From: Thermoanaerobaculia bacterium
Lineage (GTDB): Bacteria > Acidobacteriota > Thermoanaerobaculia > Multivoradales > Multivoraceae
NCBI GenBank assembly: GCA_942492505.1
Contig: CALOFD010000013.1
Span: forward strand, 10,756-74,755
Direction: 5' to 3'
Length of the DNA stretch: 64,000 bases
Shown: piece by piece, positions 2,081 to 52,664 of the stretch
Layout: the number at the start of each line of letters is the position of its first letter
How positions within the stretch are numbered: position 1 is the first letter of the stretch
Program-made: the position numbers and the translations under genes
The notes under the pieces: model-generated
Told to the model about the DNA's origin: nothing
The model's database searches: none
Seen by the model: the letters and a program-made list of their open reading frames with translations, nothing else

Positions 2081-4165
2081 ATGGCACGCAAGGTACCGCT
2101 GGAGCGGATTCGCAATATCGGCATCATGGCCCACATCGATGCCGGCAAGACCACGACGACTGAGCGGATCCTCTATTACACCGGCGTCAGTTACAAGATC
2201 GGTGAAGTCCACGATGGCGCAGCCACGATGGACTGGATGATCCAGGAGCAGGAGCGCGGCATCACCATCACGGCCGCCGCGACGACCTGTTTCTGGAAGG
2301 ACTATCGGATCAACATCATCGACACTCCGGGCCACGTCGACTTCACCGCTGAAGTCGAGCGTTCGCTGAGAGTCCTCGACGGTGCTGTCGCGGTGTTCGA
2401 TGCCGTTGCCGGCGTCGAGCCGCAGTCCGAGACCGTCTGGCGCCAGGCCAACAAGTACCACGTACCGCGCATCGCCTTCGTCAACAAGATGGACCGCGTC
2501 GGCGCCAACTTCAAGCGCACCGTCGACATGATGGTCAGTCGCCTCGACGGCCGTCCGGTGGCCCTCCAGCTGCCGTGGGGCATCGAGGAGAACCTCCAGG
2601 GTGTCATCGATCTGGTCGAGATGAAGGCTGTTCACTACTCGGGTGACAACCTCGGCGCCGACTACAGCATGGTCGACATCCCCGAGGACCTGCAGGCCGA
2701 GGCCGAGGAGTGGCGCGAGAAGATGGTCGCCGCGGTTGCCGAGACCGACGAGGGTCTGCTCGAGAAGTACCTCTCCGGCGACGAGATCGGCAACGACGAG
2801 CTGCGAGCCGCCATCCGGCGCGCCACGATCGCCGACCAGCTGCATCCCGTTCTGTGCGGCAGCGCGTTCAAGAACAAGGGCGTGCAGCCGTTGCTCGACG
2901 CCGTCATCGAGTTCCTGCCTTCGCCGATCGAAGTCGCTTCGGTCGAGGGTCATCTGCCCGGCGACGAGGAGAGTGTCGAGACTCGCGAGACCTCCGACAA
3001 GGACCCGTTCTCGGCCCTGGTCTTCAAGATCATGACCGACCCCTTCGTCGGTCAGCTCGCCTACATCCGCGTCTACTCGGGCGGCATCCGCACGGGCGAC
3101 AGCATCCTCAACGCCGCTCACGGAAAGAAGGAGCGGGTCGGTCGTCTCCTCAAGATGCACGCCGACAAGCGCGAAGAGATCGAGCAGGTCTGGTCCGGCG
3201 ATATCGCTGCCGCCGTCGGGCTGAAGGACGTCCACACGGGCGACACCATCTGCGATCCCAACCACCCGATCATCCTCGAGGCGATGACCTTCCCGGAACC
3301 CGTCATGTCGGTTTCGATCGAGCTCAAGGCGAAGGCCGACCAGGGCAAGATGTCGATGGCGTTGGCGAAGCTCATGAAGGAAGACCCCACCTTCCAGGTG
3401 CGGACCGACCATGAGACCGGCCAGACCCTGATCTCCGGCATGGGCGAGCTCCACCTCGAGATCATCACGGATCGCCTGATCCGGGAGTTCGGAGTCGAGG
3501 GCAACATCGGCAAGCCCCAGGTCGCGTACCGCGAATCGGTCACCCGTGAAGCCAAGGGAGACGGGCGCTTCGTTCGTCAGTCCGGCGGTCGCGGTCAGTT
3601 CGGCCACTGCCAGATCATCCTGCGGCCGGCCGATCCCGAGGGCCCGGAGCTGATCTTCAACAACCAGATCGTCGGTGGCTCCATCCCGAAGGAATTCATC
3701 AAGCCGATCGAGCAGGGCATCCGCGAGGCGATGGAGACCGGACCGCTGGCGGGCTATCCGCTGACGGCCGTCGAGGTCGATCTCTACGACGGCTCCTTCC
3801 ACGAGGTCGACTCCTCCGAGGTGGCGTTCAAGATCGCCGGATCGATGGCGTTCCAGGACGCCACCCGCAAGGCGGCTCCGGTTCTCCTCGAGCCGGTGAT
3901 GGCGGTCGAGACGACGACGCCCGAGGAGTACATGGGCGACGTCATCGGCGACCTCAATTCCCGCCGCGGGCGGATTTCCGAGATGGAGCCGCGCGGCAAC
4001 GTGCAGGTGATTTCAGCGAAAGTTCCACTGGGCGAGATGTTCGGCTACACCACCGACCTGCGCTCGTTGACCCAGGGACGCGCGACCTCGGTGATGCAGT
4101 TCCATGCCTACGAGCCCGCGCCCAAGAACGTTTGTGACGAGGTCGTCGCGAAAGCCGCCGGCTGA
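2081..4165 (+). CDS. fusA: Elongation factor G
   Basis: 694-aa intact ORF. G domain [31 protein letters not shown]; canonical position after rpsG. Confidence 0.97.
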
Positions 4166-10858: not shown

Positions 10859-11179
10859 GTGAAGGTCAAAATCAAGAAGAACGATCAGGTCCAGGTGATC
10901 GCCGGGCGGGATCGGGGAGCGAGCGGCAAGGTGCTGCGCGTCTTCCCGGCCAAGAATGCCGCGATCGTCGAGGGCGTGAACATCATCAAGCGCCACACCC
11001 GCCCGAACCCCCAGAAGGGGATTCAGGGTGGCGTGGTCGAGAAAGAGGCGCCGATCCTGCTCAGCAAGATCAAGTTGATCTGCCCCGAGACCGGGCAGCC
11101 GAGCCGGGTGGGACGCAAGCGCCTCGAGGACGGGACTGGTGCCCGAGTCGTCAAGCGCTCTGGAGCTACCCTCGCCTGA
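10859..11179 (+). CDS. rplX: 50S ribosomal protein L24
   Basis: GTG start; KIKKNDQVQVIAGRDRGASGKVLRV (KOW motif). Confidence 0.93.
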   Translation: MKVKIKKNDQVQVIAGRDRGASGKVLRVFPAKNAAIVEGVNIIKRHTRPNPQKGIQGGVVEKEAPILLSKIKLICPETGQPSRVGRKRLEDGTGARVVKRSGATLA

Positions 11180-19029: not shown

Positions 19030-21120
19030 TCAGTGCTCTTCTTCTTCGTGGCGCTTGTTCGCGGCGATCACCTGTTGCTGGATGTTGGCCGGCATCTCCT
19101 CGTAGTGGGAGTAGTTCATGGTGAAGCTGGCCCGGCCCTGGGTCATCGAAGTGAGAGCGGGGGAGTAGTCGAGCATCTCGGCCATCGGCACCAGGGCCTT
19201 GATCACCTGATGGCCTCCATCGAGGGCGTCCATGCCCTGGGGTCGTCCACGGCGCTGGGAGAGATCGCTCATCACGTCTCCGGTGTACTCCTCGGAGAGC
19301 GAGATCTCCACCTGCATCATGGGTTCGAGGAGCACCGGTGCGGCCCTGGACATGGCGTCCTTGAAGGCCAGGGAGCCGGCGATCTTGAAAGCCATCTCGG
19401 ACGAATCGACGTCATGGTACTGCCCGTCCTGCAGTCGCACACGTAGATCGACGACCGGGAACGACGTCGAGTAGCCGAGTTCGGCGGCTTCGCGGATTCC
19501 CTTCTCGACGGCGGGCCGGTAGTTCTGGGGAATGGCTCCGCCGAAGATCTCGTCGATGAACTCGAATTCCTCGCCGCGCGGCAGCGGCTCGAGGCTGATT
19601 CGACAGTCCGCGAACTGACCGCGTCCGCCGCTCTGCTTCTTGTGGCGGCCGTGTCCCTGGGCCGGTCGTCGAATCGCTTCCCGGTACGGGACCTTCGGCG
19701 GATGCAGGATGACGTCGACCTTGAACCTTGAGTGCAGCTTCGCCACGGCGATCTCGACGTGGAGCTGACCGGCTCCTGACAGCAGGTATTCACCGGTCTG
19801 TTCGTCGCGGCCGGCGTGCAGGGCGATGTCCTCGTCCATCAGGCGGTGGACGGCTTCGCCGATCTTCTCGTCGTCGCCCTTCGACTTCGGTTCCACCGCG
19901 AAGGAGATCGCCGGGGTGGGAGCGACGGGGAAGGCGAGTTTCACCGGCGCCGCCTTGTCACACAGGGTGTCGCCGGTGTTCGAGATCTTGAGTTTGGCAA
20001 CGGCGACGATGTCGCCGCAGATGGCGCGGTCGACGTTCTCGCCCTGCTTGCCCTGGATGTGCAGCAGGTGGCCGACCCTCTCGGCCTCCTCGGCACGACT
20101 GTTCCAGAAGGTGCTGTCGGAGTTCAGGGTGCCGCTTACGACCCTCAACAGCGAGACGCGTCCGCTGAAGGGGTCGTTGTTGGTCTTGAAGATCAGCGCC
20201 GAAGCGGGCGCATCGGGCGACAGCTCCACTTCGGTCGCTTCGCCGGCGATATTGGTGGCCGGAAAGGGAACGCGGTCCTGGGGTGAGGGAAACAGATCGA
20301 CGAAGGCGTCGAGGACCGCTGAAGTGCCGATTCCGTGACCGGCCGCTGTGGCCATGACCGGGAAGATCTGACGCGTGGCGATGGCCTTGCGCAGCCCCTC
20401 AGCCAGTTCCTCCGAGGTCAGGGTGCCCTCCTCGAAGAACTGCTCCATCAGTTCGTCATCGCTCTCGGCGACCGCTTCGACGATCTGGCTTCGCCAATCG
20501 GCGACGGCCTCGGAGAGATCCTCGGGTACGGGGCCCTCGTCGGCCTTGCCGTTGCCGTCACGGGTGAAGGTCAGGGCCTTCTCGGAGAGCAGGTCGACGA
20601 CGCCGGAGAACTCACTCTCCTGGCCGATCGGCAGGAAGAGCGGCAGGACACCGCGTCCGAACTTCTCCCGCAGACTGAGAACGAGGGTGTCGAAGTCGGC
20701 GCGTTCGCGGTCCATTCGGGTGGCGATGAGGGCCACCGGCTGCTCCATCTCCTCGCAGGTCTTCCAGAGTCGATTCGTCGAAACCTGGATCCCCGACGAG
20801 CCGTCGATGCACAGGCCGACCGCGTCCGCCACCCGGATGCCGCTGCGGATCTCGCTCGAGAACATCGGCAGGCCGGGGCAGTCGATGATGTTGACCTTGT
20901 GGTGTCTCCAGGGAGCGTAGACCGCCGACAGGCTGATCGAGATCGACCGTGCGATCTCCTCCGGGTCGAAGTCCGTGAGGGTGTTGCCGTCTTCGACCTT
21001 GTTCAGACGGGTGGTGACCCCGGATGTGTAGAGGAGGGCACTGACGAGGGTCGTCTTGCCCGTGTCGTTGTGTCCCACGATCGCGACGTTGCGGAGTCGG
21101 TCCACCGAATCGACCTTCAT
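19030..21120 (-). CDS. Elongation factor G paralog (EF-G2-like translational GTPase)
   Basis: 696-aa ORF; G domain NVAIVGHNDTGKTTL, DCPG, TRMD. EF-G domains II-V are recognisable (GQLHVEIAV..., GGRGQFADC...) but clearly diverged from fusA at 2081. Confidence 0.9.
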   Translation of the reverse strand: MKVDSVDRLRNVAIVGHNDTGKTTLVSALLYTSGVTTRLNKVEDGNTLTDFDPEEIARSISISLSAVYAPWRHHKVNIIDCPGLPMFSSEIRSGIRVADAVGLCIDGSSGIQVSTNRLWKTCEEMEQPVALIATRMDRERADFDTLVLSLREKFGRGVLPLFLPIGQESEFSGVVDLLSEKALTFTRDGNGKADEGPVPEDLSEAVADWRSQIVEAVAESDDELMEQFFEEGTLTSEELAEGLRKAIATRQIFPVMATAAGHGIGTSAVLDAFVDLFPSPQDRVPFPATNIAGEATEVELSPDAPASALIFKTNNDPFSGRVSLLRVVSGTLNSDSTFWNSRAEEAERVGHLLHIQGKQGENVDRAICGDIVAVAKLKISNTGDTLCDKAAPVKLAFPVAPTPAISFAVEPKSKGDDEKIGEAVHRLMDEDIALHAGRDEQTGEYLLSGAGQLHVEIAVAKLHSRFKVDVILHPPKVPYREAIRRPAQGHGRHKKQSGGRGQFADCRISLEPLPRGEEFEFIDEIFGGAIPQNYRPAVEKGIREAAELGYSTSFPVVDLRVRLQDGQYHDVDSSEMAFKIAGSLAFKDAMSRAAPVLLEPMMQVEISLSEEYTGDVMSDLSQRRGRPQGMDALDGGHQVIKALVPMAEMLDYSPALTSMTQGRASFTMNYSHYEEMPANIQQQVIAANKRHEEEEH

Positions 21121-21176
21121 TGGAGCTCCCTGGAGCGTTGTTGAGAAACCCTGAGTTTATCGTAGGGGCCGGCTGA

Positions 21177-21288
21177 GGATCGCACGCGATCTCGCCGTGT
21201 CCTCGCTCATCCCCTTGTGCGACGTAGCTCCGCTACGCCTCCGCGGGTCCTCGCTGCGGTACGACGATCTCACGCACGCTTCTCAGCC
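21177..21288 (+). repeat. M1 module (about 112 nt conserved structured repeat), copy A
   Basis: About 93% identical to 25335-25446. Also homologous to the reverse complements of 25806-25911 and 43291-43406. Confidence 0.85.
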
Positions 21289-21314
21289 TAGCGTGGGCGG
21301 GCCGGCCGGGGATC

Positions 21315-21442
21315 GCGGCAACCGTTCCGATTGCGGCAACCGTTCCGATTGCGGCAACCGTTCCGATTGCGGCAACCGTTCCGGTTGCGGCAACCGTTCC
21401 GGTTGCGGCAACCGTTCCGGTTGCGGCAACCGTTCCGGTTGC
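21315..21442 (+). repeat. Tandem array, 7 x 18 bp (GCGGCAACCGTTCCGRTT); each unit forms the hairpin GCAACCG-ttc-CGGTTGC
   Basis: Counted directly: units start at 21315, 21333, 21351 (CGATT variant) and at 21369, 21387, 21405, 21423 (CGGTT variant). There are no spacers. Confidence 0.95.
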
Positions 21443-21704
21443 TTGGGAGTTCGCTTCGCGAACTCCTGCCCCAATCTCGCCGAGTGCTCGTCGAGTCCCG
21501 TGTGGGCAACGCTTCGCGTTGCGGGAACCGTTCCGGTTGCTTGGGAGTTTCGCTTCCCGAACTCCTGGCGTAGGCCCGAGCAACCCCGCGGGTTGCTTTG
21601 AAGTTGCTGCGCGGACTTCTGCCAACACGGCTCTTGGGGGGCCGTTCCTGCGATTCGGGGAGGCCGCAGCTGTAGCGGTGGCCGGCAACCCTTTGGGTTG
21701 CCGT

Positions 21705-21757
21705 CCCCATCGAGGGCTGATCGATTTCTCCCCGGGCCCCGACTGATAGCGGTGACC
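21705..21757 (-). repeat. M2 module (about 50 nt repeat), copy A
   Basis: The reverse complement GGTCACC..CAGTCGGGGCCCGGGGAGAAATCGATCAGCCCTCGATGGGG matches 42862-42907. Confidence 0.75.
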
Positions 21758-21885
21758 GTGCGGCCGTTGGGAACGCTTCGCGTTCCTTGGCAGTTGCTTC
21801 GCAACTGCGGTGTCTGGACTCGGGTGGTCTTGGAGCTTCTGGCCTTCTGGATCGGGCCGTGGATGGAGGCTGGCCTGGGGTCGCT

Positions 21886-23244
21886 CTATCGGAATCGGGT
21901 ATCGGGCTGGACGACTTCGGTGGGGCCGAATTCTTCCAGTTGGGGCTGGAGTTCGCTGGCGGGGCCGACGGCTACGAGGGTCATGGTTTCGGGGTGGAGG
22001 TGGTCCTTGGCGACGCGGGCGAGGGTCGGGGCGTCGATGGTGGCGATGTCGTTCTGCCAGGTCTGCCAGTAGTCCTCCTCGAGGCCGAAGATGGCGAGGG
22101 TCCTCAGGTGCTGGAGGATGCCGCCGTTGGTCTGCAGGCCGTAGGGGAAGACGCCGAGGAGGTAGGAGCGGGTGTCTTCGATCTCCTCGGTGGTGGGGGG
22201 CTCGGTCTGGATCCTGGTGAGTTCGCCGAGGGTTTCCCGCAAGGCGGCGCCGGTGACGTCGGTGCCGACGGCGGCGGAGGCGACGAAGGGCCCGGGGCCG
22301 ATGCGGTGGGCGAAGGCGGTGCGGGCGCCGTAGGTGTAGCCGTGGCGCTCGCGCAGGTTCAGGTTGAGGCGGCTGGTGAACTTGCCCCCCAGCAGCGAAT
22401 TGAGGAAGGTCAGCGCGCTGCGATCGGGGTGGTCGCGGGGTTGCCCGACCTGGCCGACGCGGATCTCGGTCTGCGCGGCGTTGGGGCGGTCGACGATGAC
22501 GACTCGTCGTTGTGCCGCCGGCGGGGCCACAGGGGGGTAGGGCGGTGTCTCGCCGGCAGTGAGTGTGCCGAACGACTCGACGACCTGGGACGCGAGTTCG
22601 TGCGACTCGAAGTCGCCGACGGCGATCACGTGGGCGGAGCCGGAACGGTAGCGAGTCTCGTGGAACGCCACGAGGTCGTCTCGCTGGATCGATGCGACGG
22701 CCGCCTCTCCGCCCACCAGGGGAACGCCGTAGACGGTTCCCCGGTAGAGCTCGGAGGAGATCGTCGTCGAGGCCAGGGCGCCCGCCTGCGAGCGCATGCG
22801 CAGGATCTCGGCGAGTCGCTCGCGGCGCAGTCGCTCGATCTCGTCGTCGGCAAAGGCCGGCCGGATGACCGAGTCGGAGAGCAGGTCGAGACCGTCCGCG
22901 AGGTAGCTCGACAACAGGCTGAACGACGCCGAGGCGGTGTTCCAGCCGGCGCCGCTGGCCAGGCGGCCTCCCAGGCTTTCGATGTGCTGGGCGATCTCCT
23001 CTGAACTGCGGGTGCTCGTTCCCTCTTCGAGGAGGTCGGCGGTGAAGCCGGCCAGCCCAGGTTGGGACTCGGGATTGGCGTGGCCGCCGGCCTCGAAGAC
23101 GATCTGCAGCGTGACCAGGGGCGCGTGGTCGCGCCGACAGCTCCACAGGGTGAGCCCGTTCTCCAGGCGATGCCTTTCGAAGGCCGGAAACGTCGACTCG
23201 ACCGGAGCGCGTCGCGCCGGAGGCTGGCTGCGATCGAAGCTCAT
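21886..23244 (-). CDS. M16-family peptidase, HxxEH-less (non-catalytic-type) subunit
   Basis: ATG at 23244 (MSFDRSQPP...) overlaps the stop of the upstream M16 gene (ATGA). 452 aa. The longer 924-aa ORF is an out-of-frame extension. Confidence 0.88.
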   Translation of the reverse strand: MSFDRSQPPARRAPVESTFPAFERHRLENGLTLWSCRRDHAPLVTLQIVFEAGGHANPESQPGLAGFTADLLEEGTSTRSSEEIAQHIESLGGRLASGAGWNTASASFSLLSSYLADGLDLLSDSVIRPAFADDEIERLRRERLAEILRMRSQAGALASTTISSELYRGTVYGVPLVGGEAAVASIQRDDLVAFHETRYRSGSAHVIAVGDFESHELASQVVESFGTLTAGETPPYPPVAPPAAQRRVVIVDRPNAAQTEIRVGQVGQPRDHPDRSALTFLNSLLGGKFTSRLNLNLRERHGYTYGARTAFAHRIGPGPFVASAAVGTDVTGAALRETLGELTRIQTEPPTTEEIEDTRSYLLGVFPYGLQTNGGILQHLRTLAIFGLEEDYWQTWQNDIATIDAPTLARVAKDHLHPETMTLVAVGPASELQPQLEEFGPTEVVQPDTRFR

Positions 23245-24530
23245 CGAGCGCCTTCCTGGGGTTCGACCCGCACCCGCGCTCGTCCCGTGCCGGTCGACAG
23301 CCGTTGTGCGACCTGGCGGACGTCGTCGGTCGAGATGTCGTGCAGCAGCTCGATCTCGCGCTGGAAGTGCAGCGGGTCGTCGAAGTAGGTGGTCATCTGC
23401 GAGAGCAGATCGGCGCGTCGCTCGAGAGTCTGGATCTCGCCGTAGTAGGAGGTGAGAACCCGATTCCGGGCACGCTCGACATCCTGTTGCCTGGGTCCGT
23501 TCTCGGCGATCCTGTCGATATGCTCGAGCAGGGCGTTCTCCACCTCCTCGGCTGAAGTTCCCGGCCGGGCCGTGGCGCTGACGTGCAGGCAGCCGCTCTC
23601 TTCCGTGGGAAAGACGAAGGCACCGGCGCTCTGGGCGATCTCCCTGCGATAGACGAGGTCGTTGTGCAGCAGGCTGGACTTGCCGCCGCTCAACAGCATC
23701 GCGAGCAGATCGGCCGCGTACCAGCTGCGCTCGCCGTAGGCGGGAATCCGGTAGGCCATCATCGAACGAGACAGCTGAACGTCGTCGACGAGTTCCTCGC
23801 AGGGATCGTCGTCGCTGAGGTCGGCGTCTGCCCACTCGACCTCGGGAACCTCGGGGCCGGCCGGCAGATCGCCGAAGTAGAGCTCGACACGCTGCAGGGC
23901 CTTGTCGGGCTCGAGGTCGCCGGCCAGGGTGAGGACGGCGTTGTTCGGGGCGTAGTAGGTCTGGAAGAACTCCCGCACGTCGTCGAGGGTGGCGGCGGCG
24001 ATGTCTTCCATGTACCCGATCACCGGCCAGTGGTAGGGATGTCCGTCGGGAAACGCCAGCTCCTGGAGGCGCTCGGAGGCCCGACCGTAGGGCTGGTTGT
24101 CGACCCGCTGGAGCCGTTCGTTCATCACCACTCCACGCTGGTTCTCCAGCTTCTCCGACGTCATCGCCGGCAGCAGGAAGCCCATTCGGTCCGACTCGAG
24201 CCACAGACCGAGGTCCAGCGAGTCGGCGGGCAGGGTCTCGAAGTAGTTGGTGCGGTCGTACCAGGTCGAGCCGTTGGCCACGCCGCCGACCTGCTGGACG
24301 TACCTGAAATGGTCGTTGTCGCCGACGTTCGCGCTGCCCTGGAAGAGCATGTGCTCGAAGAGGTGGGCGAATCCGGTCTTGCCCGGCCGCTCGTTCTTGG
24401 AGCCGGCGTGGTACCAGAGGTTCACCGCCACCAGCGGCAGTCGCGGGTCGGGATGGATGACGACCTCGAGGCCGTTGGCGAGGCGATGTCGCTCGACTCT
24501 CAGGGGGGGAATGGTGGGCGTCGCAGACAT
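23241..24530 (-). CDS. M16-family zinc peptidase (pitrilysin-like, catalytic subunit)
   Basis: 429-aa ORF with the inverted zincin motif HLFEH in GFAHLFEHMLFQG. Confidence 0.92.
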   Translation of the reverse strand: MSATPTIPPLRVERHRLANGLEVVIHPDPRLPLVAVNLWYHAGSKNERPGKTGFAHLFEHMLFQGSANVGDNDHFRYVQQVGGVANGSTWYDRTNYFETLPADSLDLGLWLESDRMGFLLPAMTSEKLENQRGVVMNERLQRVDNQPYGRASERLQELAFPDGHPYHWPVIGYMEDIAAATLDDVREFFQTYYAPNNAVLTLAGDLEPDKALQRVELYFGDLPAGPEVPEVEWADADLSDDDPCEELVDDVQLSRSMMAYRIPAYGERSWYAADLLAMLLSGGKSSLLHNDLVYRREIAQSAGAFVFPTEESGCLHVSATARPGTSAEEVENALLEHIDRIAENGPRQQDVERARNRVLTSYYGEIQTLERRADLLSQMTTYFDDPLHFQREIELLHDISTDDVRQVAQRLSTGTGRARVRVEPQEGAR

Positions 24531-24653
24531 GACGGTCGAGTCTACGGGAGCCGGCTTCGAAGCGCATCCCGTCGCACCCCGAGCCCTCCACCGTGGAAGA
24601 CGGCCCGATCCCGGTGAGGGATGCGGGTGCGGGCGGCGCCGTCGGCAAACCTC

Positions 24654-24682
24654 TTGACATGCGCCTTGTTTACGCCTACCCT
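24654..24682 (+). promoter_or_regulatory. Candidate lexA promoter TTGACA-17 nt-TACCCT
   Basis: The -10 ends 6 nt before the GTG at 24689, which implies a leaderless or near-leaderless transcript. Confidence 0.35.
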
Positions 24683-24688
24683 GGTTCG

Positions 24689-25317
24689 GTGACGACCGTC
24701 AAGAACTACCTGACCAAGCGCAGAAGGAGATCCTCGAGTTCATCGAGGATTTCACCTCCAGCAACGGCATCTCGCCGACCCACCGCGAAATCTGCGAGGA
24801 GTTCGGCTACTCCTCCTACGGCACGGTGCACAAGCACCTCAAGCTGCTCCAGCAGAAGGGCTTCCTGAAGCGCGACTGGAATCAGAAGCGCGGACTCCAG
24901 CTCATGCGGCCTGCGGCCAGCGCCGCGGAGCCGCCGCTCGCGGAGGTTCCCTTCTACGGCCGTATCGCAGCCGGTCGGCCGATCGAGGCGTTGCCCGGCA
25001 ACGATTCGCTGCCGATCCCTCCCAGCCTCCTGCGTGGCGCCCACGGCGACCACTACGTCCTGCAGGTCACCGGCGATTCGATGATCGAGGAAGGCATCCA
25101 CGACGGCGACCTGGTGGTGATCCAGCGCAGCCAGCAGGCGAAGCCCGGCGAGATGGTGGTCGCGCTGGTCGACGACGAAGCGACGCTCAAACGCTTCTAT
25201 CCCGAAGGTGAGATCGTCCGCCTGCAGCCCTCGCATCCCACCATGCAGCCGATGCGCTTTCCGGCCGAGAGTGTGAGGATACAAGGCATAGTAGTAGGCC
25301 TGATGAGGTCCTTCTGA
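24689..25317 (+). CDS. lexA: LexA repressor, frame-disrupted as written (one nt missing near 24719-24722)
   Basis: VTTVKNYLTKR is in the frame of 24689. QKEILEFIEDFTSSNGISPTHREICEEFGYSSYGTVHKHLKLLQQKGFL... continues in the -1 frame to the S24 peptidase domain (VTGDSMIEEGI). 629 nt plus 1 gives 210 codons. Confidence 0.85.
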
Positions 25318-25334
25318 CGTCGAGGCGCGGCCGG

Positions 25335-25446
25335 GGATCGTACCCAATCTCGCCGTGTCCTCCTTCGTCCCCTTGTGCGACGTAGCTCCGCTACGCCTCC
25401 GCGGGTCCTCCCTGCGGTACGACGATCTCACGCACGCTTCTCAGCC
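25335..25446 (+). repeat. M1 module, copy B1
   Basis: Near-identical to 21177-21288. Confidence 0.85.
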
Positions 25447-25604
25447 TTTCGTAGGTGGGTCGGGCGGGGATCGCGGCAGCCCTTCGGGCTGCTTGGGAGT
25501 TCGCTCACGCGAACTCCTGCCCCAATCTCGCCGGATCCTTGTCGAATCCCTTATGCGAGGTTGGCAACCCTTCGGGTTGCTTAGAAGCTCGCTCCACGAA
25601 CCTC

Positions 25605-25667
25605 ACGCTCCGCTACGCTTCCGCGGGTCCTCACTCGCGGTACGACGATCTCCTGCACGTACCAGCC
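25605..25667 (+). repeat. M1 module, partial copy B2 (3' two-thirds)
   Basis: CGCTCCGCTACGCTTCCGCGGGTCCTCACTCGCGGTACGACGATCTCCTGCACG aligns to M1 positions about 50-112. Confidence 0.7.
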
Positions 25668-25805
25668 TCAGGTTGGGTAGTGATTGGACCCCTGATGTTG
25701 CCTGGAAGGCTTCTCGGGTTGACTCGGCCGGAGGAACTTCGAAGGGTCAGAGTTCTTGAGGCGCATTGGAGTTTGCAGCAACTCCAGCTAGCCAACCCAA
25801 CCTGA

Positions 25806-25911
25806 GGCCGGGAAGCGTGCGCCAGATCGTCGAACCGCAGGAGAGACCCACGAAGAGTTAGCGGAACTACCTCAAGCACACCCGACGAGGACTTGCCGAG
25901 ATGGGCGATCC
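25806..25911 (-). repeat. M1 module, copy B3 (inverted)
   Basis: The reverse complement GGATCGCCCATCTCGG...GGTAGTTCCGCTAAC...GCGGTTCGACGATCTGGCGCACGCTTCCCGGCC aligns to M1. Confidence 0.8.
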
Positions 25912-25972
25912 CCGGCCGACCCCGATCATGATACAGTTGGGGATTGCTAACTCTCTATAACTGAACGAACAA

Positions 25973-32352: not shown

Positions 32353-32379
32353 TAGGCCGCGGACGATCGGGTCAGAAGT

Positions 32380-32494
32380 CTGATCGAAGATCAGACGGAT
32401 CGCTGATCGAAGATCAGACGGATTGCTGATCGCAGATCAGACGGATTGCTGATCGAAGATCAGACGGATTGCTGATCGAAGATCAGACGGAGGC
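32380..32494. repeat. Tandem array, 5 x 23 bp (CTGATCGAAGATCAGACGGATTG); each unit contains the hairpin CTGATC-gaa-GATCAG
   Basis: Units start at 32380, 32403, 32426 (gca loop), 32449 and 32472. The array holds 10 GATC sites and lies between convergent genes. Confidence 0.95.
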
Positions 32495-41074: not shown

Positions 41075-42647
41075 TCAGATCGACGGCGACGCTGGGGTCT
41101 GCAGGGACAGCGCGAACTCCATGGCGTCGGCGAGGGCCGCCCAGCTGGCCTCGATGATGTTGGTGGACGCTCCGACGGTCGTGAACCGGTGTTGGCCGAG
41201 TTCCGAGTCGATCAGCACCCGGGTGGTGGCAGCGGTCCCCTCGGCGTCGAGAATGCGCACCTTGTAGTCCCGCAGTTCCAGCTCCTCGAGCTGCGGATAG
41301 TGCGGCAGGAGGGCCTTGCGCAGGGCGAGGTTGAGGGCGTTGACCGGTCCGTTGCCGTCGGCGACGGTGTGGGCGATTTCCTCACCGATCCGCACCTTGA
41401 CGGTCGCCTCCGAGAAGAGCCCGCGGCCCTCCCGGTGTTCGACCACGGCCATGAAGTCGACCAGCTCGAAAGGCGCCTGGTAGTCGTCTTCGGCGCGCTG
41501 CAGCATGACCTGCACCGAGGCCTCGGCGCCTTCGAAGGTGTAGCCCTTGTTCTCGAGTTCCTTGACCTGTTGCAGGACCTTGCGGGCGTTCTCGTGGCGC
41601 GAGTCGAGTCCGTGACGATCGGCGAGGTCGAGGATGTTGCCGCGCCCGGAGAGCTCCGAGACGACGCTTCGGCTGATGTTCCCGACCGTGCTCGGGTCGA
41701 TGTGCTGGTAGCTGTCGACGGCCTTGCGCATGGCGGCGACGTGGATGCCGCCCTTGTGGGCGAAGGCGCTGTGGCCGACGAACGGCAGGTGGTCGTCGTG
41801 GGGGATGTTGGCCAGTTCGGCGACGAAGCTCGACAGTTCGGTGAGTTTCGACAGCTGTTCGGCGCTGACGCACTCGATCCCCATCTTGAGCTGCAGGTCG
41901 GGGACGATCGCCGTCAGGTTGGCGTTCGCGACCCGTTCACCGTAGCCGTTGATGGTGCCCTGAACCATCACGCAGCCTGCCCGTACCGCGGCGAGCGAGT
42001 TCGCGACGCCACAGCCGCCGTCGTCGTGGGTGTGGATCCCCAGCCGGGTCGAGGTCGCCGCTCGCACCGGCCGTGACGATCTCCTCGATCTCCCAGGGAA
42101 GCGAGCCGCCGTTGGTGTCGCACAGCACCAGGAAATCCGCGCCGGCCTTCTCGGCCGCCAACAGTGTCCCCAGCGCGTGATCCGGATCGGCCTTCCAGCC
42201 GTCGAAGAAGTGCTCGGCGTCGTAGACCACCTCACGCCCGAGATCCTTCAGATAGGCGACGCTGTCGCCGATCATCGCCCGATTCTCTTCGGCGGTCGTT
42301 TCGATCACCTCACGGACGTGCAGATCCCAGCTCTTCCCGACGAGCGTCACCACCGGTGTGTCGGCGGTCACCAACGCCTGGATGTTGGCGTCCTCCGAGC
42401 ACGACGTGTCCTTGTACCGAGTGCTGCCGAAGGCACAGATCCGCGCCTGCTCGAGGTCGAGTTCCCGTACCCGCTCGAAGAACTCGACGTCCTTCGGATT
42501 CGATCCCGGCCAGCCCCCCTCGATGTAGGGCACCCCGAACTCGTCCAGCCGAGCCGCGATCTTCAGCTTGTCGCTCAGCGACAGCGAGATCGACTCGCGT
42601 TGCGTTCCGTCGCGTAACGTCGTGTCGTAGAGAAAGAATTCGCTCAT
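41075..42647 (-). CDS. cimA: (R)-citramalate synthase-type LeuA-family enzyme, frame-disrupted as written (one extra G in CCGGCC at 42067-42072)
   Basis: N-terminal [21 protein letters not shown]...[10 protein letters not shown]...[11 protein letters not shown]. The C-terminal ORF ...[28 protein letters not shown]...LeuA dimerisation domain is in another frame. 1573 nt minus 1 gives 524 codons. Confidence 0.85.
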
Positions 42648-42861
42648 CGTGCTGCTCTCCTGAAAGGAGGCCCCAGGCCCCCGTTGACGGACCGATCAGG
42701 CCGTCGCAGGAATGCAACTCGCAACGGCAAGAGCCGTCACGGCGTTCTCCTCAGAAGCGAATGACACGAGATCCCTCAACATGGGCCGCGGATCGTACCC
42801 CGCACCCTCCCCCTCGAGCAAGCGAGCGGCAACCCCCCAGGGTGGCCCCGGCCGCGGGCAA

Positions 42862-42907
42862 GGTCACCAGTCGGGGCCTGGGGAGGAAGCGATCAGCCCT
42901 CGATGGG
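42862..42907 (+). repeat. M2 module, copy C
   Basis: GGTCACCAGTCGGGGCCTGGGGAGGAAGCGATCAGCCCTCGATGGG matches the reverse complement of 21705-21757. Confidence 0.75.
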
Positions 42908-43290
42908 ACGCGGGCAACCCTTCGGGTTGCGGCAACCCCTCGGGTTGCTTGGCAGTTGCTTCGCAACTGCCGGCAACAAGAAGGGGCGAACCGTTCCAGT
43001 TGCTCGGAGGCTCACACTTTGCTTGCTTCGGACGTCGCGAGGGAATGGAGTTCCCGCCAGCGATCTCCGAAGGGTTCCCGGCGTGCTTCGAATCGTTGCA
43101 GCGAGGGTCAGCGCCGCTCGTCCCCAACCAGGGCTGCCCCCCCCGGTCACCCTTGAGCCACGGCCTCCCAGGTTCGCGCTCAAGTCCGATTCGAAATCGA
43201 TTGTGAAGACAATCGCCGCACATCGAAGCCTTTCCCGACCACTGTCGCCAGGAGTTCGCGTAAAGCGAGATGCGACCCTTAGGGTTGCCC

Positions 43291-43406
43291 CTGAGAGTGC
43301 GTAGCGTGCGTCGAATCGTCGTAGCGCAGGAGCGAGGCGCGGAGGGGTAGCGGAGCTACCCCGCACAAGCCGAGTGACGAGCACACGGCGAGGCGGCGTA
43401 CGATCC
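43291..43406 (-). repeat. M1 module, copy C
   Basis: The reverse complement GGATCGTACGCCGCCTCGCCGTGTGCTCG...GGGGTAGCTCCGCTACCCC...CTACGACGATTCGACGCACGC aligns to M1. Confidence 0.8.
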
Positions 43407-43412
43407 GCACTC

Positions 43413-46307
43413 TCAATCGACCTGGCGGAGGAGTTCTAGCAACTCATCCCGACTGAAGATCTTGCCGAGTTTTGGATGATCCGCCTGCACGACGCTCGAC
43501 ATGAGCTTGCGCTTGCGGTCGATCATCGCCGCGATCTTCTCCTCGAGAGTGTCCTCGGTGACCAGCTTGAAGACCTGGACGGCACGTTTCTGGCCGATCC
43601 GGTAGACCCGGTCGGTGGCCTGATCCTCCTTCGCCGCGTTCCACCAGCGGTCGTAGTGGATGACCACGGAACCGGCGACCAGATCGATGCCGGTGCCGCC
43701 GGCGCGCAGACTGCCGAGGAAGACCCGGCAGTCGGGGTCCTGGTTGAAGCGATTGACGACTTCGCCGCGCTTGCGAGTCGATCCGGTGAGTTTCACCAGC
43801 GGCACGCGGCGTTCGCGCAGGTAGTCCTCCATGATCGAGATCATGCCGAGGTACTGTGAGAACACGACCACCTTCTGGCCGCTCTGCAGGCTCTCCTCGA
43901 GCAGGTCGACGAACAGGTCCCACTTGCTCGAGCGATGGTCACGCCACTCCTCGGCCTTTCCGATGGCCAGCGCCGGATGGTCGCAGATCTGCTTGAGCTG
44001 GTTGAGGAGCGCGAAGATGTGGATGTAGGGCAGGGGATCCTTGCCCTTGCGGATGGTCTCCGCCAGCGCCATGCCCCGGGTGTCGATCGTGCTGCGGTAG
44101 AGCTGGCGCTGCTCGTCGCTCAGCGAGCAGGTGCGGATGTCTTCGATCTTCTCCGGCAGTTCGTGCAGGACCGCGGTCTTCAGGCGACGCAGCACGAAGG
44201 GAGCGATGAGCCGACGCAGGTCTTCGAGCGTGGAGTCGTCGGGCTCGTCTCGAGAACTGGCGCCGTAGCGATCGAAGTAGTCCTCGTCTTCGCCGAGGTA
44301 GCGGGGCAGCACGAGGTCGAAGAGATTCTTGAGCTCGGAAAGGGAGTTCTCGATCGGCGTACCGGTGAGGCCGACCTTCATCCGGGCCGGCACGGTGATC
44401 GCGGCCCGGTGGGCCTGGGTCTCCTGGTTCTTGATCTGCTGGACCTCGTCGAAGACCACCAGGCTCCAGGGGACCTCGCTCAACTTGGCGACGTCGTTTC
44501 GCAGGACGCCGTAGGAGGCGATCACGACGTCGGCCTCCTCGAGGGTCTGGTCGAGATCGCGCTGCGAACCATGGTAGACGGCGGCTCGCAGCCCCGGGGC
44601 GTACTGAGCGATCTTGTCGCGCCAGTGGCTGATGACCGTGCGCGGGCAGATCACGAGGTTGGGATCCTCGACGCCGTGCTGTTCGCGGATCAGGACCATC
44701 AGCGCCATCGCCTGATGGGTCTTGCCGAGGCCCATGTCGTCACACAGCAGGCCGGCGAGATGATTCTCGTAGAGGAAGTGGAGCCACTCGACACCGAGGG
44801 TCTGGTAGGGCCGCAGTTGGCTCGTGAGGCCCTTCAACGGTACGAGGGGCTGGGAGGGGCGGTAGTCCAGCAGACGGTGGAGGATGTCGGTGCGGTCCTG
44901 GGACGCTTCGATCCTCACCGGCTTGGAGGTCGACGACTTGAGTCGCAGGATCTGCGCCGAGGAGAGCTTCAGGCTCTCGTTGGGCGGGGCGTCGGCCTCG
45001 CGAGCACCGATGAACCCTTCCACACCGCGCAACTCGGGGGCGCTCAGGTCGACCCAGCCGAGGTCGGTCTCGAGGTATGCGAGACCGCGGCGCTTGGCGT
45101 CGGCGATGTCCCGGATCGCCACTCGCGCGTCACCGAAGGCGTAATGCACGTCGAGTTCATTTTCGTCCTGGGCGGCGATCTCGAGATGATCGAATTCGCG
45201 CAGGATCCGCAGTTCGCGGGTCGGATCGTCGAGCACGACCTTGGGAACCGGGTCGTCGAAGGGTTCCCGCTGTCCCCACTGGGGGACCGGGGTGGGTGTG
45301 CGCTTGCGAGCCCGGTGGAGGGCCGCGGCGCCGTCGGGATCCTCGAACTCGGTGAAGACGCTGAGTTCCGGGATGAAGGCGAGATTGCCGTAGATGAAGG
45401 GCTCGATTCGCTCGGGCGCGATGCCGGTCTCTTCATAGTCGAGGACGGCCTGAACGCTCTCGGCCCAGCCGCTGCCGCTCTCGAGGCTGGCGCTGTTCGA
45501 GAGAATCGACTCGAGCGAGCCGATGGCGATGTCCAGGGGTGGCTCGAGTCCGCCCTCGGCGGCGAACTCGAGGACGCTGGGAACTCGTGAACGAGGCACG
45601 TAGAAGGTGGCGGAGGGCTTGCCGGACTGTCGATGGTAGGTCAGCCCGAGGATGCCCCGACTGCGATGGACGGAGAGTTCGTAGGCTCCCTCCTCGTCTT
45701 CGAACTCGCGGAAGCAGTGGTAGGCGAAGCGGTACCACAGGCTCTCCTCGAACGATTGACGATTGGTCTTCATGCCGGCGCGGTTCAGATGCTGCTCTTC
45801 GGAGCTGCGCAGGAAGATGGACAGCTTGTCGATGAGTTCGGCCCGGTCCTGAAAGCCGATCTCGGGGCTGACCTTGCCGAGCCTCTCGAGCAGTCGCAGC
45901 GCCCCAGGGGAGATCTCGTGGTAGTCGACGAGAGCCTCGCCGGCGGTGTTGTAGAAGCGCAGCCGAGGGCCGTCTTCGCGTTCGATGCGCGTTACGGTCG
46001 AAGTCACGAAGGCTTGCGGGTCGCCCTCGAAGAGCCGATGGGCCAGCTCGTGCCAGGGCGACGCGGAGAAGATCTCCCCGAAGGAGCGACCGCGGTACTT
46101 CTTGCGGAACAGCTTGATCTGGCGACCGAGTTCGGCGAGGTGCTTGCAGGTTCGTCGTCGTCCCGCGGTGCAGCTGCAGAAGCGTAGGGGGCGGGTCGAG
46201 CCGGCGGCGTTCTCGAGGTAGATCGCGGCGCCCGGATCGGCGTCGTTCAGCGCCGTCAGGACTCCGATGCCGGAGCGGTGAAACTCGAGGTTGGAGAACT
46301 GCGTCAT
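43413..46307 (-). CDS. SNF2-family helicase/translocase with N-terminal SWIM zinc finger
   Basis: 964 aa; SWIM CSCTAGRRRTCKH; SNF2 motifs LCDDMGLGKT (I), DEVQQIKN (II), LTGTPIENS (III); the helicase C-terminal domain ...GGTGIDLVAGSVVIHYDRWWNAAKEDQATDRVYRIGQ. Confidence 0.9.
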   Translation of the reverse strand: MTQFSNLEFHRSGIGVLTALNDADPGAAIYLENAAGSTRPLRFCSCTAGRRRTCKHLAELGRQIKLFRKKYRGRSFGEIFSASPWHELAHRLFEGDPQAFVTSTVTRIEREDGPRLRFYNTAGEALVDYHEISPGALRLLERLGKVSPEIGFQDRAELIDKLSIFLRSSEEQHLNRAGMKTNRQSFEESLWYRFAYHCFREFEDEEGAYELSVHRSRGILGLTYHRQSGKPSATFYVPRSRVPSVLEFAAEGGLEPPLDIAIGSLESILSNSASLESGSGWAESVQAVLDYEETGIAPERIEPFIYGNLAFIPELSVFTEFEDPDGAAALHRARKRTPTPVPQWGQREPFDDPVPKVVLDDPTRELRILREFDHLEIAAQDENELDVHYAFGDARVAIRDIADAKRRGLAYLETDLGWVDLSAPELRGVEGFIGAREADAPPNESLKLSSAQILRLKSSTSKPVRIEASQDRTDILHRLLDYRPSQPLVPLKGLTSQLRPYQTLGVEWLHFLYENHLAGLLCDDMGLGKTHQAMALMVLIREQHGVEDPNLVICPRTVISHWRDKIAQYAPGLRAAVYHGSQRDLDQTLEEADVVIASYGVLRNDVAKLSEVPWSLVVFDEVQQIKNQETQAHRAAITVPARMKVGLTGTPIENSLSELKNLFDLVLPRYLGEDEDYFDRYGASSRDEPDDSTLEDLRRLIAPFVLRRLKTAVLHELPEKIEDIRTCSLSDEQRQLYRSTIDTRGMALAETIRKGKDPLPYIHIFALLNQLKQICDHPALAIGKAEEWRDHRSSKWDLFVDLLEESLQSGQKVVVFSQYLGMISIMEDYLRERRVPLVKLTGSTRKRGEVVNRFNQDPDCRVFLGSLRAGGTGIDLVAGSVVIHYDRWWNAAKEDQATDRVYRIGQKRAVQVFKLVTEDTLEEKIAAMIDRKRKLMSSVVQADHPKLGKIFSRDELLELLRQVD

Positions 46308-51060: not shown

Positions 51061-52664
51061 ATGACCCAGCGAATCCGACGTAGTTCGCATTTTCGACACC
51101 ACGCTGCGCGACGGCGAGCAGTCGCCGGGCGCCAGCCTGACCAGTGACGAGAAGGTTGAAATCGCCCACCAGCTGGCGCGGTGCTCGGCGTCGACGTGAT
51201 CGAAGCCGGCTTTCCTGCCGCCAGTCCGGACGACCTCGCTGCCGTGCAGCGGATCGCCGAGGAGGTCGGGCGCCCCGACGGGCCGATCATCGCCGGCCTG
51301 GCGCGGGCCAATCGAGGCGACATTTCGAAGGCCTGGGAAGGCGTCAAGCACGCCGCCAAACCCCGCATCCACACCTTCATCGCGACCTCGGAACTCCATA
51401 TGGAGCGCAAGCTCGAGATGACCCGGGACCAGGTCGTCGCCCAGGTCCGCGAGATGGTCGAGTACGCCGAGCAGCCTCTGCGACGACGTCGAGTTCAGCC
51501 CCGAGGACGCCGGTCGCTCCGATCCGGACTTCCTGTCGAGGTGCTCGAGTGGCCATCGAAGCCGGCGCGACGACGCATCAACATTCCCGACACGGTGGGC
51601 TATACCGATGCCCGACGAATACGGTGCGCTGTTCCGCAACCTGATCGCCAAAACACCGGGGATCGGACGTCGCGTGGTCTGGTCGGTCCATTGTCACGAC
51701 GATCTGGGCTTCGCCACCGCCAACACGCTCGCCGGCCTCGCAGACGGCGCGCGCCAGGCCGAGGTCACGCATCAACGGCATCGGCGAACGCGCCGGCAAC
51801 ACCAGCCTCGAAGAAGTGGTGATGGCGCTTCACACGCGGCGCCCGGTCTTCGGTCTCGACACCCGGATCAACACCCGTCAGCTGGCCCGCAGCAGCCAGA
51901 TGGTGGCGAACTACACCGGCATCGCGGTGCCCCGCAACAAGGCGATCGTCGGCCAGAACGCGTTTGCCCACGAGGCCGGAATCCACCAGGACGGCATGCT
52001 CAAGGACCAGCGCACCTACGAGATCATGACGCCGGAAACCGTGGGATTGACCGAATCGAAGCTGATCCTCGGCAAGCACTCCGGTCGTCACGCCTTCCGC
52101 ATCCGGATGTCGGAACTCGGCTTCGAACTGAGTCCCGGCGAGCTCTATCCGACGTTCCAGCGTTTCAAGCTGCTGGCCGACCGGAAGAAGACGATCGCCG
52201 ACGCCGATCTGCGGCAGTCGTTGGTGCAGTCCGACCTGATCGCTCCGGACGCATCTTCGACGCTGCTCGACCTCCAGGTCGCGTGCGGATCGACCGGGCT
52301 GCCCACGGCGACGGTGAGGATCGCCGGGCCGGACGGCAAGGAGCATGTCGAAGCCGCGGTCGGGACCGGCCCGGTCGATGCGACCTTCCAGGCCATCAAC
52401 CGGATCGTCGAGATCCCCAATACCCTGATCGAGTACAACGTCCACAGTGTCACCGAGGGAATCGACGCCGTCGGTGAGGTGACCGTTCGACTGGCCTCGA
52501 TGGACGGCCAGCGCAGCGTCGGAGGCTACGGAGCCGACACCGACGTCATCGTCGCCTCGGCGCAGGCCTATCTGAGCGCCCTCAATCGAGCCATCGCCGC
52601 CAGCGGCGACGGCGCCGAGGGCGGCGAAGCCGCGACCTCGATCCCCTCTGAACGGGCTTCCTGA
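51061..52664 (+). pseudogene. leuA: 2-isopropylmalate synthase, disrupted by about 8 frame changes between 51061 and 51771 (pseudogene or error-dense assembly)
   Basis: LeuA-like segments [90 protein letters not shown]...[16 protein letters not shown] and [20 protein letters not shown]... lie in alternating frames. From 51771 to the stop the frame is intact. 1604 nt minus 2 gives 534 codons. Confidence 0.85.

Follow-up and report, generated by a model that had tools for sequence, protein, structure and literature searches.

A probable family of palindromic intergenic repeats forming nested blocks beside housekeeping genes in a member of the Thermoanaerobaculia

Introduction

Palindromic intergenic repeats (REP/REPIN, ERIC, BOX and Correia elements and MITEs, the miniature transposable elements with inverted repeats) are well known from a few cultured lineages, and no such family was found described for Thermoanaerobaculia, or for Acidobacteriota generally, in the literature searched. 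Here we describe a repeat, M1, in a stretch of 64,000 nt of Thermoanaerobaculia DNA (contig CALOFD010000013.1, hereafter the window), where it forms three intergenic blocks (loci A, B and C) together with small hairpins (labelled H1 to H4) and a second module, M2. The three loci are probably nests of a lineage-specific, non-coding and non-autonomous palindromic repeat family of the REPIN/ERIC/MITE kind. The family is a new one, of a familiar kind of bacterial mobile DNA; it is not a new type of system, and no new category of biology is opened by it.

ERIC/IRU elements are imperfect palindromes over their whole length, which are intergenic, co-transcribed and found in either orientation, with longer variants made by internal insertions; ERICs in Yersinia have been reported with a TA target duplication. 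M1 shares the full-length imperfect palindrome, the intergenic position, a presumed co-transcription, the occurrence in either orientation and the insertion-lengthened variants, and it is of nearly the same size as RU-1 (ERIC/IRU) of enterobacteria, an imperfect palindrome with a size given as 127 bp (PMC2759123). It differs in being unrelated in sequence and host, and no target duplication was seen for M1 in the one comparison of a filled with an empty site. The BOX elements of Streptococcus pneumoniae have the modular structure boxA-boxB(n)-boxC. In the BrickBuilt MITE of Porphyromonas gingivalis a 23-nt minisatellite lies inside the MITE (PMC4596501). The blocks described here are likewise modular intergenic mosaics with a short unit of variable number in an element with inverted ends, namely an 18-bp hairpin repeated about seven times in a disrupted M1; in contrast, this internal repeat is itself a perfect hairpin and comes from a separate doublet of about 45 nt that is also found outside M1, and there is no sequence relation.

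REPINs are hairpin-forming doublets of REP sequences, which RAYT tyrosine transposases mobilise (Bertels & Rainey 2011, PMC3116915). They show compensatory changes on both sides of the hairpin, they build clusters when one unit inserts into another or beside it, and they occur in tandem arrays (PMC3116915). M1 is similar in being an extragenic unit of about 100 nt that forms one long hairpin without coding capacity, and in its compensatory changes, its clusters formed by insertion into or beside units, and its tandem arrays. However, the arms of M1 cannot be recognised as REP palindromes bearing a GTAG/CGTC tag, nor are they consistently self-palindromic, and GTAG occurs in M1 only inside the apical stem (GTAGC-TCC-GCTAC) and not as an unpaired tag (criterion from PMC3733652). 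The host also differs, REPINs having been described in Proteobacteria and Cyanobacteria and M1 in Acidobacteriota (Thermoanaerobaculia). REP and BIME sequences are small GC-rich palindromes clustered in extragenic mosaics (PMC2817692, PMC3733652), as are the hairpins of the three loci; the latter, however, are perfect and 17-21 nt long, whereas REP palindromes measure 20-40 nt and have an unpaired GTAG or CGTC end tag. The hairpins are preceded by GCG, TTG or GTGG, with no REP tag, and they form direct doublets joined by TTG instead of alternating regularly in orientation.

M1 is small, non-coding and dispersed, as MITEs are (120-bp units, five copies in the window and one in another genome). 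In its working it is like a REPIN, an ERIC or a MITE, but it is not fileable in any named family, because REP tags and BIME alternation are absent and MITE target duplications were not seen. The attC sites of integrons are imperfect palindromes bounded by R''/R' core sites (RYYYAAC ... GTTRRRY), near cassettes and intI. This assignment was rejected for M1, which has the ends GGATCG.../...GCACGCTT and is flanked by housekeeping genes that are syntenic in relatives.

Copies and fold of M1

M1 was located with nhmmer and with a covariance model (R1) built from five copies. Both found four full copies in the window, and a weaker match at 25519-25658 lies within the fifth, interrupted copy; a search of the window with the filters off gave nothing above noise beyond the copies listed in Table 1. 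Pairwise identity among the copies is 67-73%, except for M1-A and M1-Ba (91%) and for M1-C, which is 81% identical to a copy in another genome (metagenome-assembled genome, MAG, JALCBJ010000063.1) and thereby closer to it than to the other window copies.

The unit, of about 120 bp, is an imperfect palindrome over its full length and folds into a single long hairpin, for which RNAalifold gave 40 pairs with the apex GTAGC-TCC-GCTAC. Among the five aligned copies 93.9% of the cells in paired columns were paired, compared with 83.1 +/- 1.8% in column shuffles, none of 500 shuffles being as high, and when the pairing partners were shifted by 1-3 columns the pairing fell to 30-47%. Double (compensatory) changes were seen in 12 of the 40 pairs and extend out to the termini. 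Every copy has complementary termini of 7-10 bp; the outermost helix varies from copy to copy with its complementarity kept (GGCTGAG/CTCAGCC, GGCCGGG/CCCGGCC, GAGAGTGCG/CGCACTCTC and AGAGGCCG/CGGCCTCT). The M1 family is a clean example of a repeat in which the hairpin pairing, and not the terminal sequence, is conserved, which bears on the question of how such elements are recognised.

M1 is non-coding, as the substitutions are evenly distributed over the codon positions (18, 19 and 20 variable columns at positions 1, 2 and 3). The open reading frames (ORFs) of all three loci have a flat G+C content by codon position; real genes have a G+C content at the third codon position (GC3) of about 0.85.

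Insertion polymorphism

The sixth M1 copy (JALCBJ010000063.1, here L006, positions 10859-10978) fills a 139-nt gap between moxR and a VWA gene in a Thermoanaerobaculia MAG and stops 2 nt short of the ATG of the latter gene. In two relatives with MoxR proteins 94% and 92% identical the gaps at this junction are 58 and 12 nt, respectively, and hold no M1. The 12-nt allele (L009) reads TTTC/GAGTG and the filled site TTTC/AGAGGCCG...CGGCCTCT/GATG (slashes mark the junctions), the insert being a clean 120 bp with 8-bp perfect inverted termini. No direct repeat that would represent a target-site duplication was found in the filled site of L006 against the empty site TTTCGAGTG of L009, which is a single comparison. 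Judged from these sequences, M1 is mobile, at least in the past.

In L006 (10841-10982) M1 separates the ATG of the VWA gene from its likely ribosome-binding region, so that the gene keeps its upstream context only if the 120-nt insert loops out as an mRNA hairpin. The insertion is a natural test case for the tolerance of structured insertions at start codons.

Loci A and B occupy gaps that are much shorter in syntenic relatives: the gap between the M16 peptidase and EF-G paralog genes is 113 and 158 nt there vs 765 nt in the window, and that between lexA and the T2SSE ATPase gene is 82 nt vs 655 nt. Neither M1 nor hairpins of this type were found in the syntenic relatives of the window loci, and a further 55 kb or so from other relatives held no M1. 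Alignment of the junctions with the syntenic relatives, tried for the insertion boundaries, was given up because the sequences are too diverged (EF-G paralog at most 68% identical). The blocks enlarge intergenic regions about 5-fold beside core genes (the EF-G paralog of the ribosomal cluster, lexA and cimA). Spurious ORFs tend to be called in them, and they are places where MAG assemblies are likely to break or to contain errors.

In a scan of 185,579 species genomes a degenerate M1 pattern of 22 bases found one true copy, the one in JALCBJ010000063.1. The same pattern gave a single chance match, inside a desaturase gene, in a metagenome collection and none in viral contigs; blastn against plasmids gave no match either.

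Architecture of the three loci

The features of the loci are listed in Table 1. A repeat search and blastn recovered M1, M2 and a family of hairpin doublets of 47 nt.

Table 1. Coordinates of the features of loci A, B and C in the window
Feature	Position	Strand	Description	Evidence
EF-G paralog	19030-21120	-		
Non-coding gap	21121-21885		765 bp, between EF-G paralog start (21120, -) and M16 peptidase stop (21886, -)	
M1-A	21169-21290	+	Full, 122 nt, apex GTAGC-TCC-GCTAC	R1 139.8 bits, E 5.6e-30; nhmmer; fold
GGCCGGGGATCG	21304-21315	+	5' start of second, disrupted M1	
Tandem array	21311-21442	+	18 bp x 7.3, H1 units GCAACCG-TTC-CGGTTGC	Tandem Repeats Finder score 229, 98% matches
H2 hairpin	21446-21466	+	GGAGTTCGC-TTC-GCGAACTCC, second half of H1+H2 doublet	Stem scan; repeat family D8
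M1 internal fragment	21467-21505	+	Part of disrupted second M1 (M1 positions ~15-50)	nhmmer E 0.012; alignment
H1 hairpin and imperfect H1+H2 doublet	21506-21567	+	GCAACGC-TTC-GCGTTGC, then doublet	Stem scan; repeat family D8; blastn
Degenerate doublet	21579-21625	+	AGCAACCC-CGC-GGGTTGCT and decayed second hairpin	Stem scan; blastn
H1 hairpin	21683-21703	+	CGGCAACCC-TTT-GGGTTGCCG, adjoins M2	Stem scan; blastn
M2, locus A	21705-21758	+		Inverted repeat I4; blastn 21674-21766 vs 42940-42849
H4+H3 doublet	21770-21808	+	GGAACGC-TTC-GCGTTCC, TTG, GCAGTTGC-TTC-GCAACTGC	Stem scan; blastn
M1-Ba	25327-25448	+	Full, 91% identical to M1-A	R1 127.7 bits
M1-Bb	25460-25681	+	Complete M1 split by two hairpin-doublet insertions	Global alignment; R1 29.9 bits; nhmmer 1.3e-12
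M1-Bc	25804-25919	-	Full, inverted	R1 94.4 bits
M1 5'-end fragment	42784-42805	+	GGCCGCGGATCGTACCCC, inverted, far end of locus C	GGCCGGGGATCG scan; read from sequence
M2, locus C	42855-42907	-		
Three hairpins	42914-42971	+	H1, H1, H3 (+ strand loops TTC, CTC, TTC)	
Degenerate hairpin doublet	43247-43290	-	Directly after M1-C	Read from sequence
M1-C	43293-43414	-	Full	R1 136.1 bits

Locus A lies in a gap for which the initial annotation, made from the sequence alone, had reported no credible ORF; this was borne out, the ORFs of the gap being low-complexity and arginine-rich, with a flat G+C content by codon position (GC3 0.6-0.72 vs 0.85-0.86 in the neighbouring genes). The locus opens with M1-A, whose GGATCG end is about 50 nt from the EF-G paralog start; this module had been placed at 21177-21288, and nhmmer and the covariance model confirmed it with the wider limits of Table 1. 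After a short spacer follows GGCCGGGGATCG, the beginning of a second M1 that is broken directly after GATCG by a doublet, the first hairpin of which was amplified to about seven copies; the first insertion of M1-Bb uses the same point. The sequence GGCCGGGGATCG does recur, as had been claimed for it as a junction motif, with exact copies at 21304-21315, 25329-25340 and 25906-25917 (-) and one-mismatch copies at 25462 and 42784; at no more than one mismatch there were 7 matches vs 2.1 expected, and 0 of 100 shuffles reached 7. The array of seven 18-bp hairpins was likewise recovered; its first three units have a C/A mismatch in the stem (CGATTGC) and the last four are perfect, and as the assembly carries 1-nt indels in several genes the exact length of the array and small hairpin bulges are not to be over-read. 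Beyond the array and doublet the locus continues with an internal M1 fragment (blastn 21470-21511 vs 25343-25382), further hairpins, M2 and a final doublet. Seven further perfect stems had been listed for the locus, six of which were found (21446-66, 21506-22, 21579-97, 21683-703, 21770-86 and 21790-808); the one at 21525-21540 has 5 perfect pairs followed by a G/G mismatch.

Locus B consists of M1 (+), which begins 11 nt past the stop of the lexA-like gene, a 12-nt spacer, a second M1, a 122-nt spacer and an inverted M1, whose GGATCG end precedes the T2SSE ATPase start by about 50 nt; since M1-Bc lies inverted, the locus is bounded by inverted M1 units. The two insertions of M1-Bb (25474-25518 and 25562-25605) are 44-45 nt each and have the form H1-TTG-H2. 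The collinearity that had been noted between loci A and B is real (21161-21463 vs 25318-25601 at 74% identity and 21423-21562 vs 25473-25601) but gapped.

Locus C opens with M1 (-), which starts at the stop codon of an SNF2 helicase gene. Next come a decayed doublet and a unique stretch of about 250 nt, and then three hairpins, M2 (-) and, in inverted orientation, 22 nt of the M1 5' end. To describe the whole layout of locus A as the reverse complement of 42862-43406 was an overstatement, as this holds only for M1 (112 nt) and for the block of hairpin and M2 (93 nt); the hairpins of locus C match those of locus A in direct orientation, and the sequence at about 43000-43245 is unique to locus C. 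The inverted M2 was found as reported (21706-21758 vs 42855-42907, 83% identity), and the module is present in loci A and C only.

Each M2 copy is preceded by an H1 hairpin, the loop of which is TTT in locus A and, in homologous orientation, GAA in locus C; this difference suggests loop flipping. That M2 could be a remnant of an inverted M1 end, an idea formed by eye, was rejected after local alignment against shuffles (p 0.07-0.98).

Altogether about 15 perfect stems (at least 7 bp, 3-nt loop) occur in the approximately 2 kb of the three loci, compared with a background of about 0.15 per kb in the rest of the window and in some 85 kb of related genomes; they cluster at 21.37-21.81 kb, 25.48-25.58 kb and 42.91-42.97 kb. 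The doublets are direct (hairpin-TTG-hairpin), seven of eight having the same orientation on the + strand. TTC is the + strand sequence of 12 of the 15 perfect 3-nt loops, in all three loci and even beside inverted M1 and M2. This polarity may be a replication-strand bias, which is a lead only, many of the hairpins not being independent events.

Proposed explanation and alternatives

The replicating unit of the probable repeat family would be M1, which spreads, or once spread, by insertion into short intergenic gaps. It would be non-autonomous and mobilised in trans by an enzyme encoded elsewhere, whose existence we purely infer. The substrate most likely recognised would be the folded single strand and not a fixed terminal sequence, because the ends change in concert and no target duplication was seen. 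REPINs are assumed to work in this way with RAYT tyrosine transposases, and for M1 it would favour mobilisation of the HUH/tyrosine type (RAYT or IS200/IS605-like) over a DDE transposase that reads fixed terminal repeats. The blocks of about 600 bp would have arisen as M1 units landed beside or into one another in either orientation, doublets of about 45 nt (H1-TTG-H2) were inserted into M1, one hairpin was amplified 7-fold through slippage, and interrupted copies decayed. The effect on the host is probably close to neutral: the elements may be transcribed together with the adjacent genes and loop out in hairpin form, which would account for the tolerance of a copy 2 nt away from a start codon. 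A further-reaching version is doubtful. In it, M1 and the doublets of about 45 nt would be the two tiers of a system of mobile DNA in Acidobacteriota that is recognised by its structure (hairpin-dependent, single-strand) and driven by an HUH/RAYT-like or other enzyme; the doublets would prefer the M1 site following GATCG (used in loci A and B), and the loops would keep one polarity relative to the replication strand.

The initial annotation had argued for a family of mobile or recombining structured elements and against chance palindromes. The covariation over the whole hairpin, the nested copies and gaps about 600 bp larger than in syntenic relatives support this; its label of REP/BIME-like or MITE-like holds as to the kind of mobile family, while the REP tags and MITE target duplications sought were not found. 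Several points weigh against the repeat-family explanation. The known M1 copies total only six, and a high copy number, a hallmark of such families, is unproven by the strict-pattern scans. A Pfam scan of 27 window ORFs gave neither a transposase nor a RAYT. Compensatory change would be expected of a functional RNA as well, the absence of a target-site duplication rests on one filled/empty pair whose genomes have, in addition, point differences at the junction, and the 1-nt indels in several genes may make the fine detail of imperfect hairpins unreliable.

The main rival is a structured RNA with a function of its own, such as a site for RNase III or other processing, a stabiliser of mRNA or a regulator of translation; M1 would then be present as paralogous copies beside genes and would not be mobile. 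The strong covariation speaks for it, as does the far better RNA fold of the reverse-complement strand (consensus -55.3 vs -38.4 kcal/mol, z-scores of -5.5 and -6.3 for two copies); in three copies this strand is the sense one and precedes a start codon by 2-50 nt. That strand is, however, antisense to the flanking genes in the other two of the five copies, and loci A and C are mutually inverted although both lie between - strand genes, so that the orientation of M1 relative to transcription is not conserved. Wobble-type mismatches are near balance between the strands (24 G.T vs 16 A.C cells); this asymmetry, tried as a means of choosing the sense strand, was not decisive and gives no clear one. 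Because of the mixed orientation, the unrelated neighbours (EF-G paralog, T2SSE ATPase, VWA protein, lexA and SNF2 helicase), the absence of M1 at the orthologous sites of every relative examined and the interrupted or truncated copies, a functional RNA is considered unlikely. Rfam 15 gave no match in the window at the gathering score and none to M1 even at E <= 10, where spurious microRNA-type matches appeared on the tandem array only. A role of the loci as promoters or terminators was rejected on consensus scans, in which the three loci showed no terminator-like site and the single promoter-like site was weak and lay on the wrong strand. Improbable, too, is a classical MITE, i.e. an internally deleted insertion sequence of the DDE type mobilised via its terminal inverted repeats: small size, lack of coding capacity, perfect terminal inverted repeats of 7-10 bp, dispersal, insertion polymorphism and the inverted M1 ends that bound loci B and C would all fit, but terminal repeats that vary by copy and yet stay complementary are not expected if a transposase reads a fixed end, the one site for which there is an empty allele showed no target duplication, and no related insertion sequence was seen.

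The notion that there is no real family, only a local segmental duplication with GC-rich palindromes due to chance, or else an artefact of assembly errors, is very improbable and already largely refuted. In its favour, the window copies are all found within 22 kb, frameshifted genes occur in the assembly, and tandem arrays are hard to assemble; but the copies diverge (67-91% identity) in a way unlike an assembly duplicate, the structure statistics are far above those of shuffles, and a different public MAG holds a copy of independent origin in the data. As M1-C is nearer to that copy, and that copy is an insertion absent from the orthologous site of two close relatives, a single duplication within the window, which the initial annotation had itself named as the alternative, does not account for the loci; nor was the protein-coding signal that it had considered found. 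That M1 encodes a small protein is the least credible explanation of all: one frame is open in all five copies with a similar peptide (...LCDVAPLRLRGSSLRYDDLTHAS...), and both gaps in M1-Bc are 3 nt each, but 40-codon open frames are common at 65% G+C, there is no conserved start codon, in L006 the frame lies antisense between tightly spaced genes, and the even spread of the variable columns over the codon positions and the flat GC3 refute this reading. From 1.84 billion representative proteins a profile of this frame retrieved two irrelevant repeat proteins only, and a six-frame M1 pseudo-protein had no match at E <= 1 among 5.8 billion proteins.

Surrounding genes and further observations

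The window has a G+C content of 62-70%, with the + strand G-rich throughout, and carries a cluster of ribosomal-protein genes and rpoA followed by housekeeping genes. The closest homologues of the EF-G paralog are annotated as Thermoanaerobaculia/Acidobacteriota and are at most 68% identical, from which it follows that the source is an uncultured lineage without a close relative in the collections.

A second, unrelated tandem array of hairpins is found at 32357-32494 (23 nt x ~5, CTGATCGAAGATCAGACGGATTG; hairpin GTCTGATC-GAA-GATCAGAC). It lies between a convergent anti-sigma-like ORF, the last codons of which it overlaps, and the gene of a 691-aa GreA-domain protein; tandemly amplified hairpins seem to be a habit of the source genome.

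The "M16 peptidase" ORF of 924 aa (21886-24660, -) is in reality a pair of genes, which relatives also have (439 + 454 aa): Pfam M16 domains cover residues 512-832 only, and the N-terminal half has a flat GC3 and overlaps a better ORF (23241-24530, GC3 0.87). The lexA homologue (24689-25317, +), with a TTGACA hexamer ahead of it at 24654-24659, has an apparent 1-nt deletion near 24721-24725, where the window reads AAGCGCAGAAGGAG and relatives encode ...KRQ(K/Q)EIL...; the deletion separates the first ~11 codons (VTTVKNYLTKR) from the remainder and is either a sequencing indel or the mark of a pseudogene. Frameshifts also break two cimA/leuA-type genes (HMGL-like and LeuA_dimer domains), one at 41075-42647 (-) with a single frameshift near 42.1 kb and one at 51100-52664 (+) with several at 51.1-51.9 kb, which points to an indel-prone assembly or to decaying paralogues. 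An inverted similarity of 185 nt (72%) between 3788-3972 and 19244-19428 reflects the paralogy of the canonical fusA (2081-4165, +) and the EF-G paralog. The place of the latter after rplQ and beside the M16, lexA and T2SSE genes is conserved in Thermoanaerobaculia relatives.

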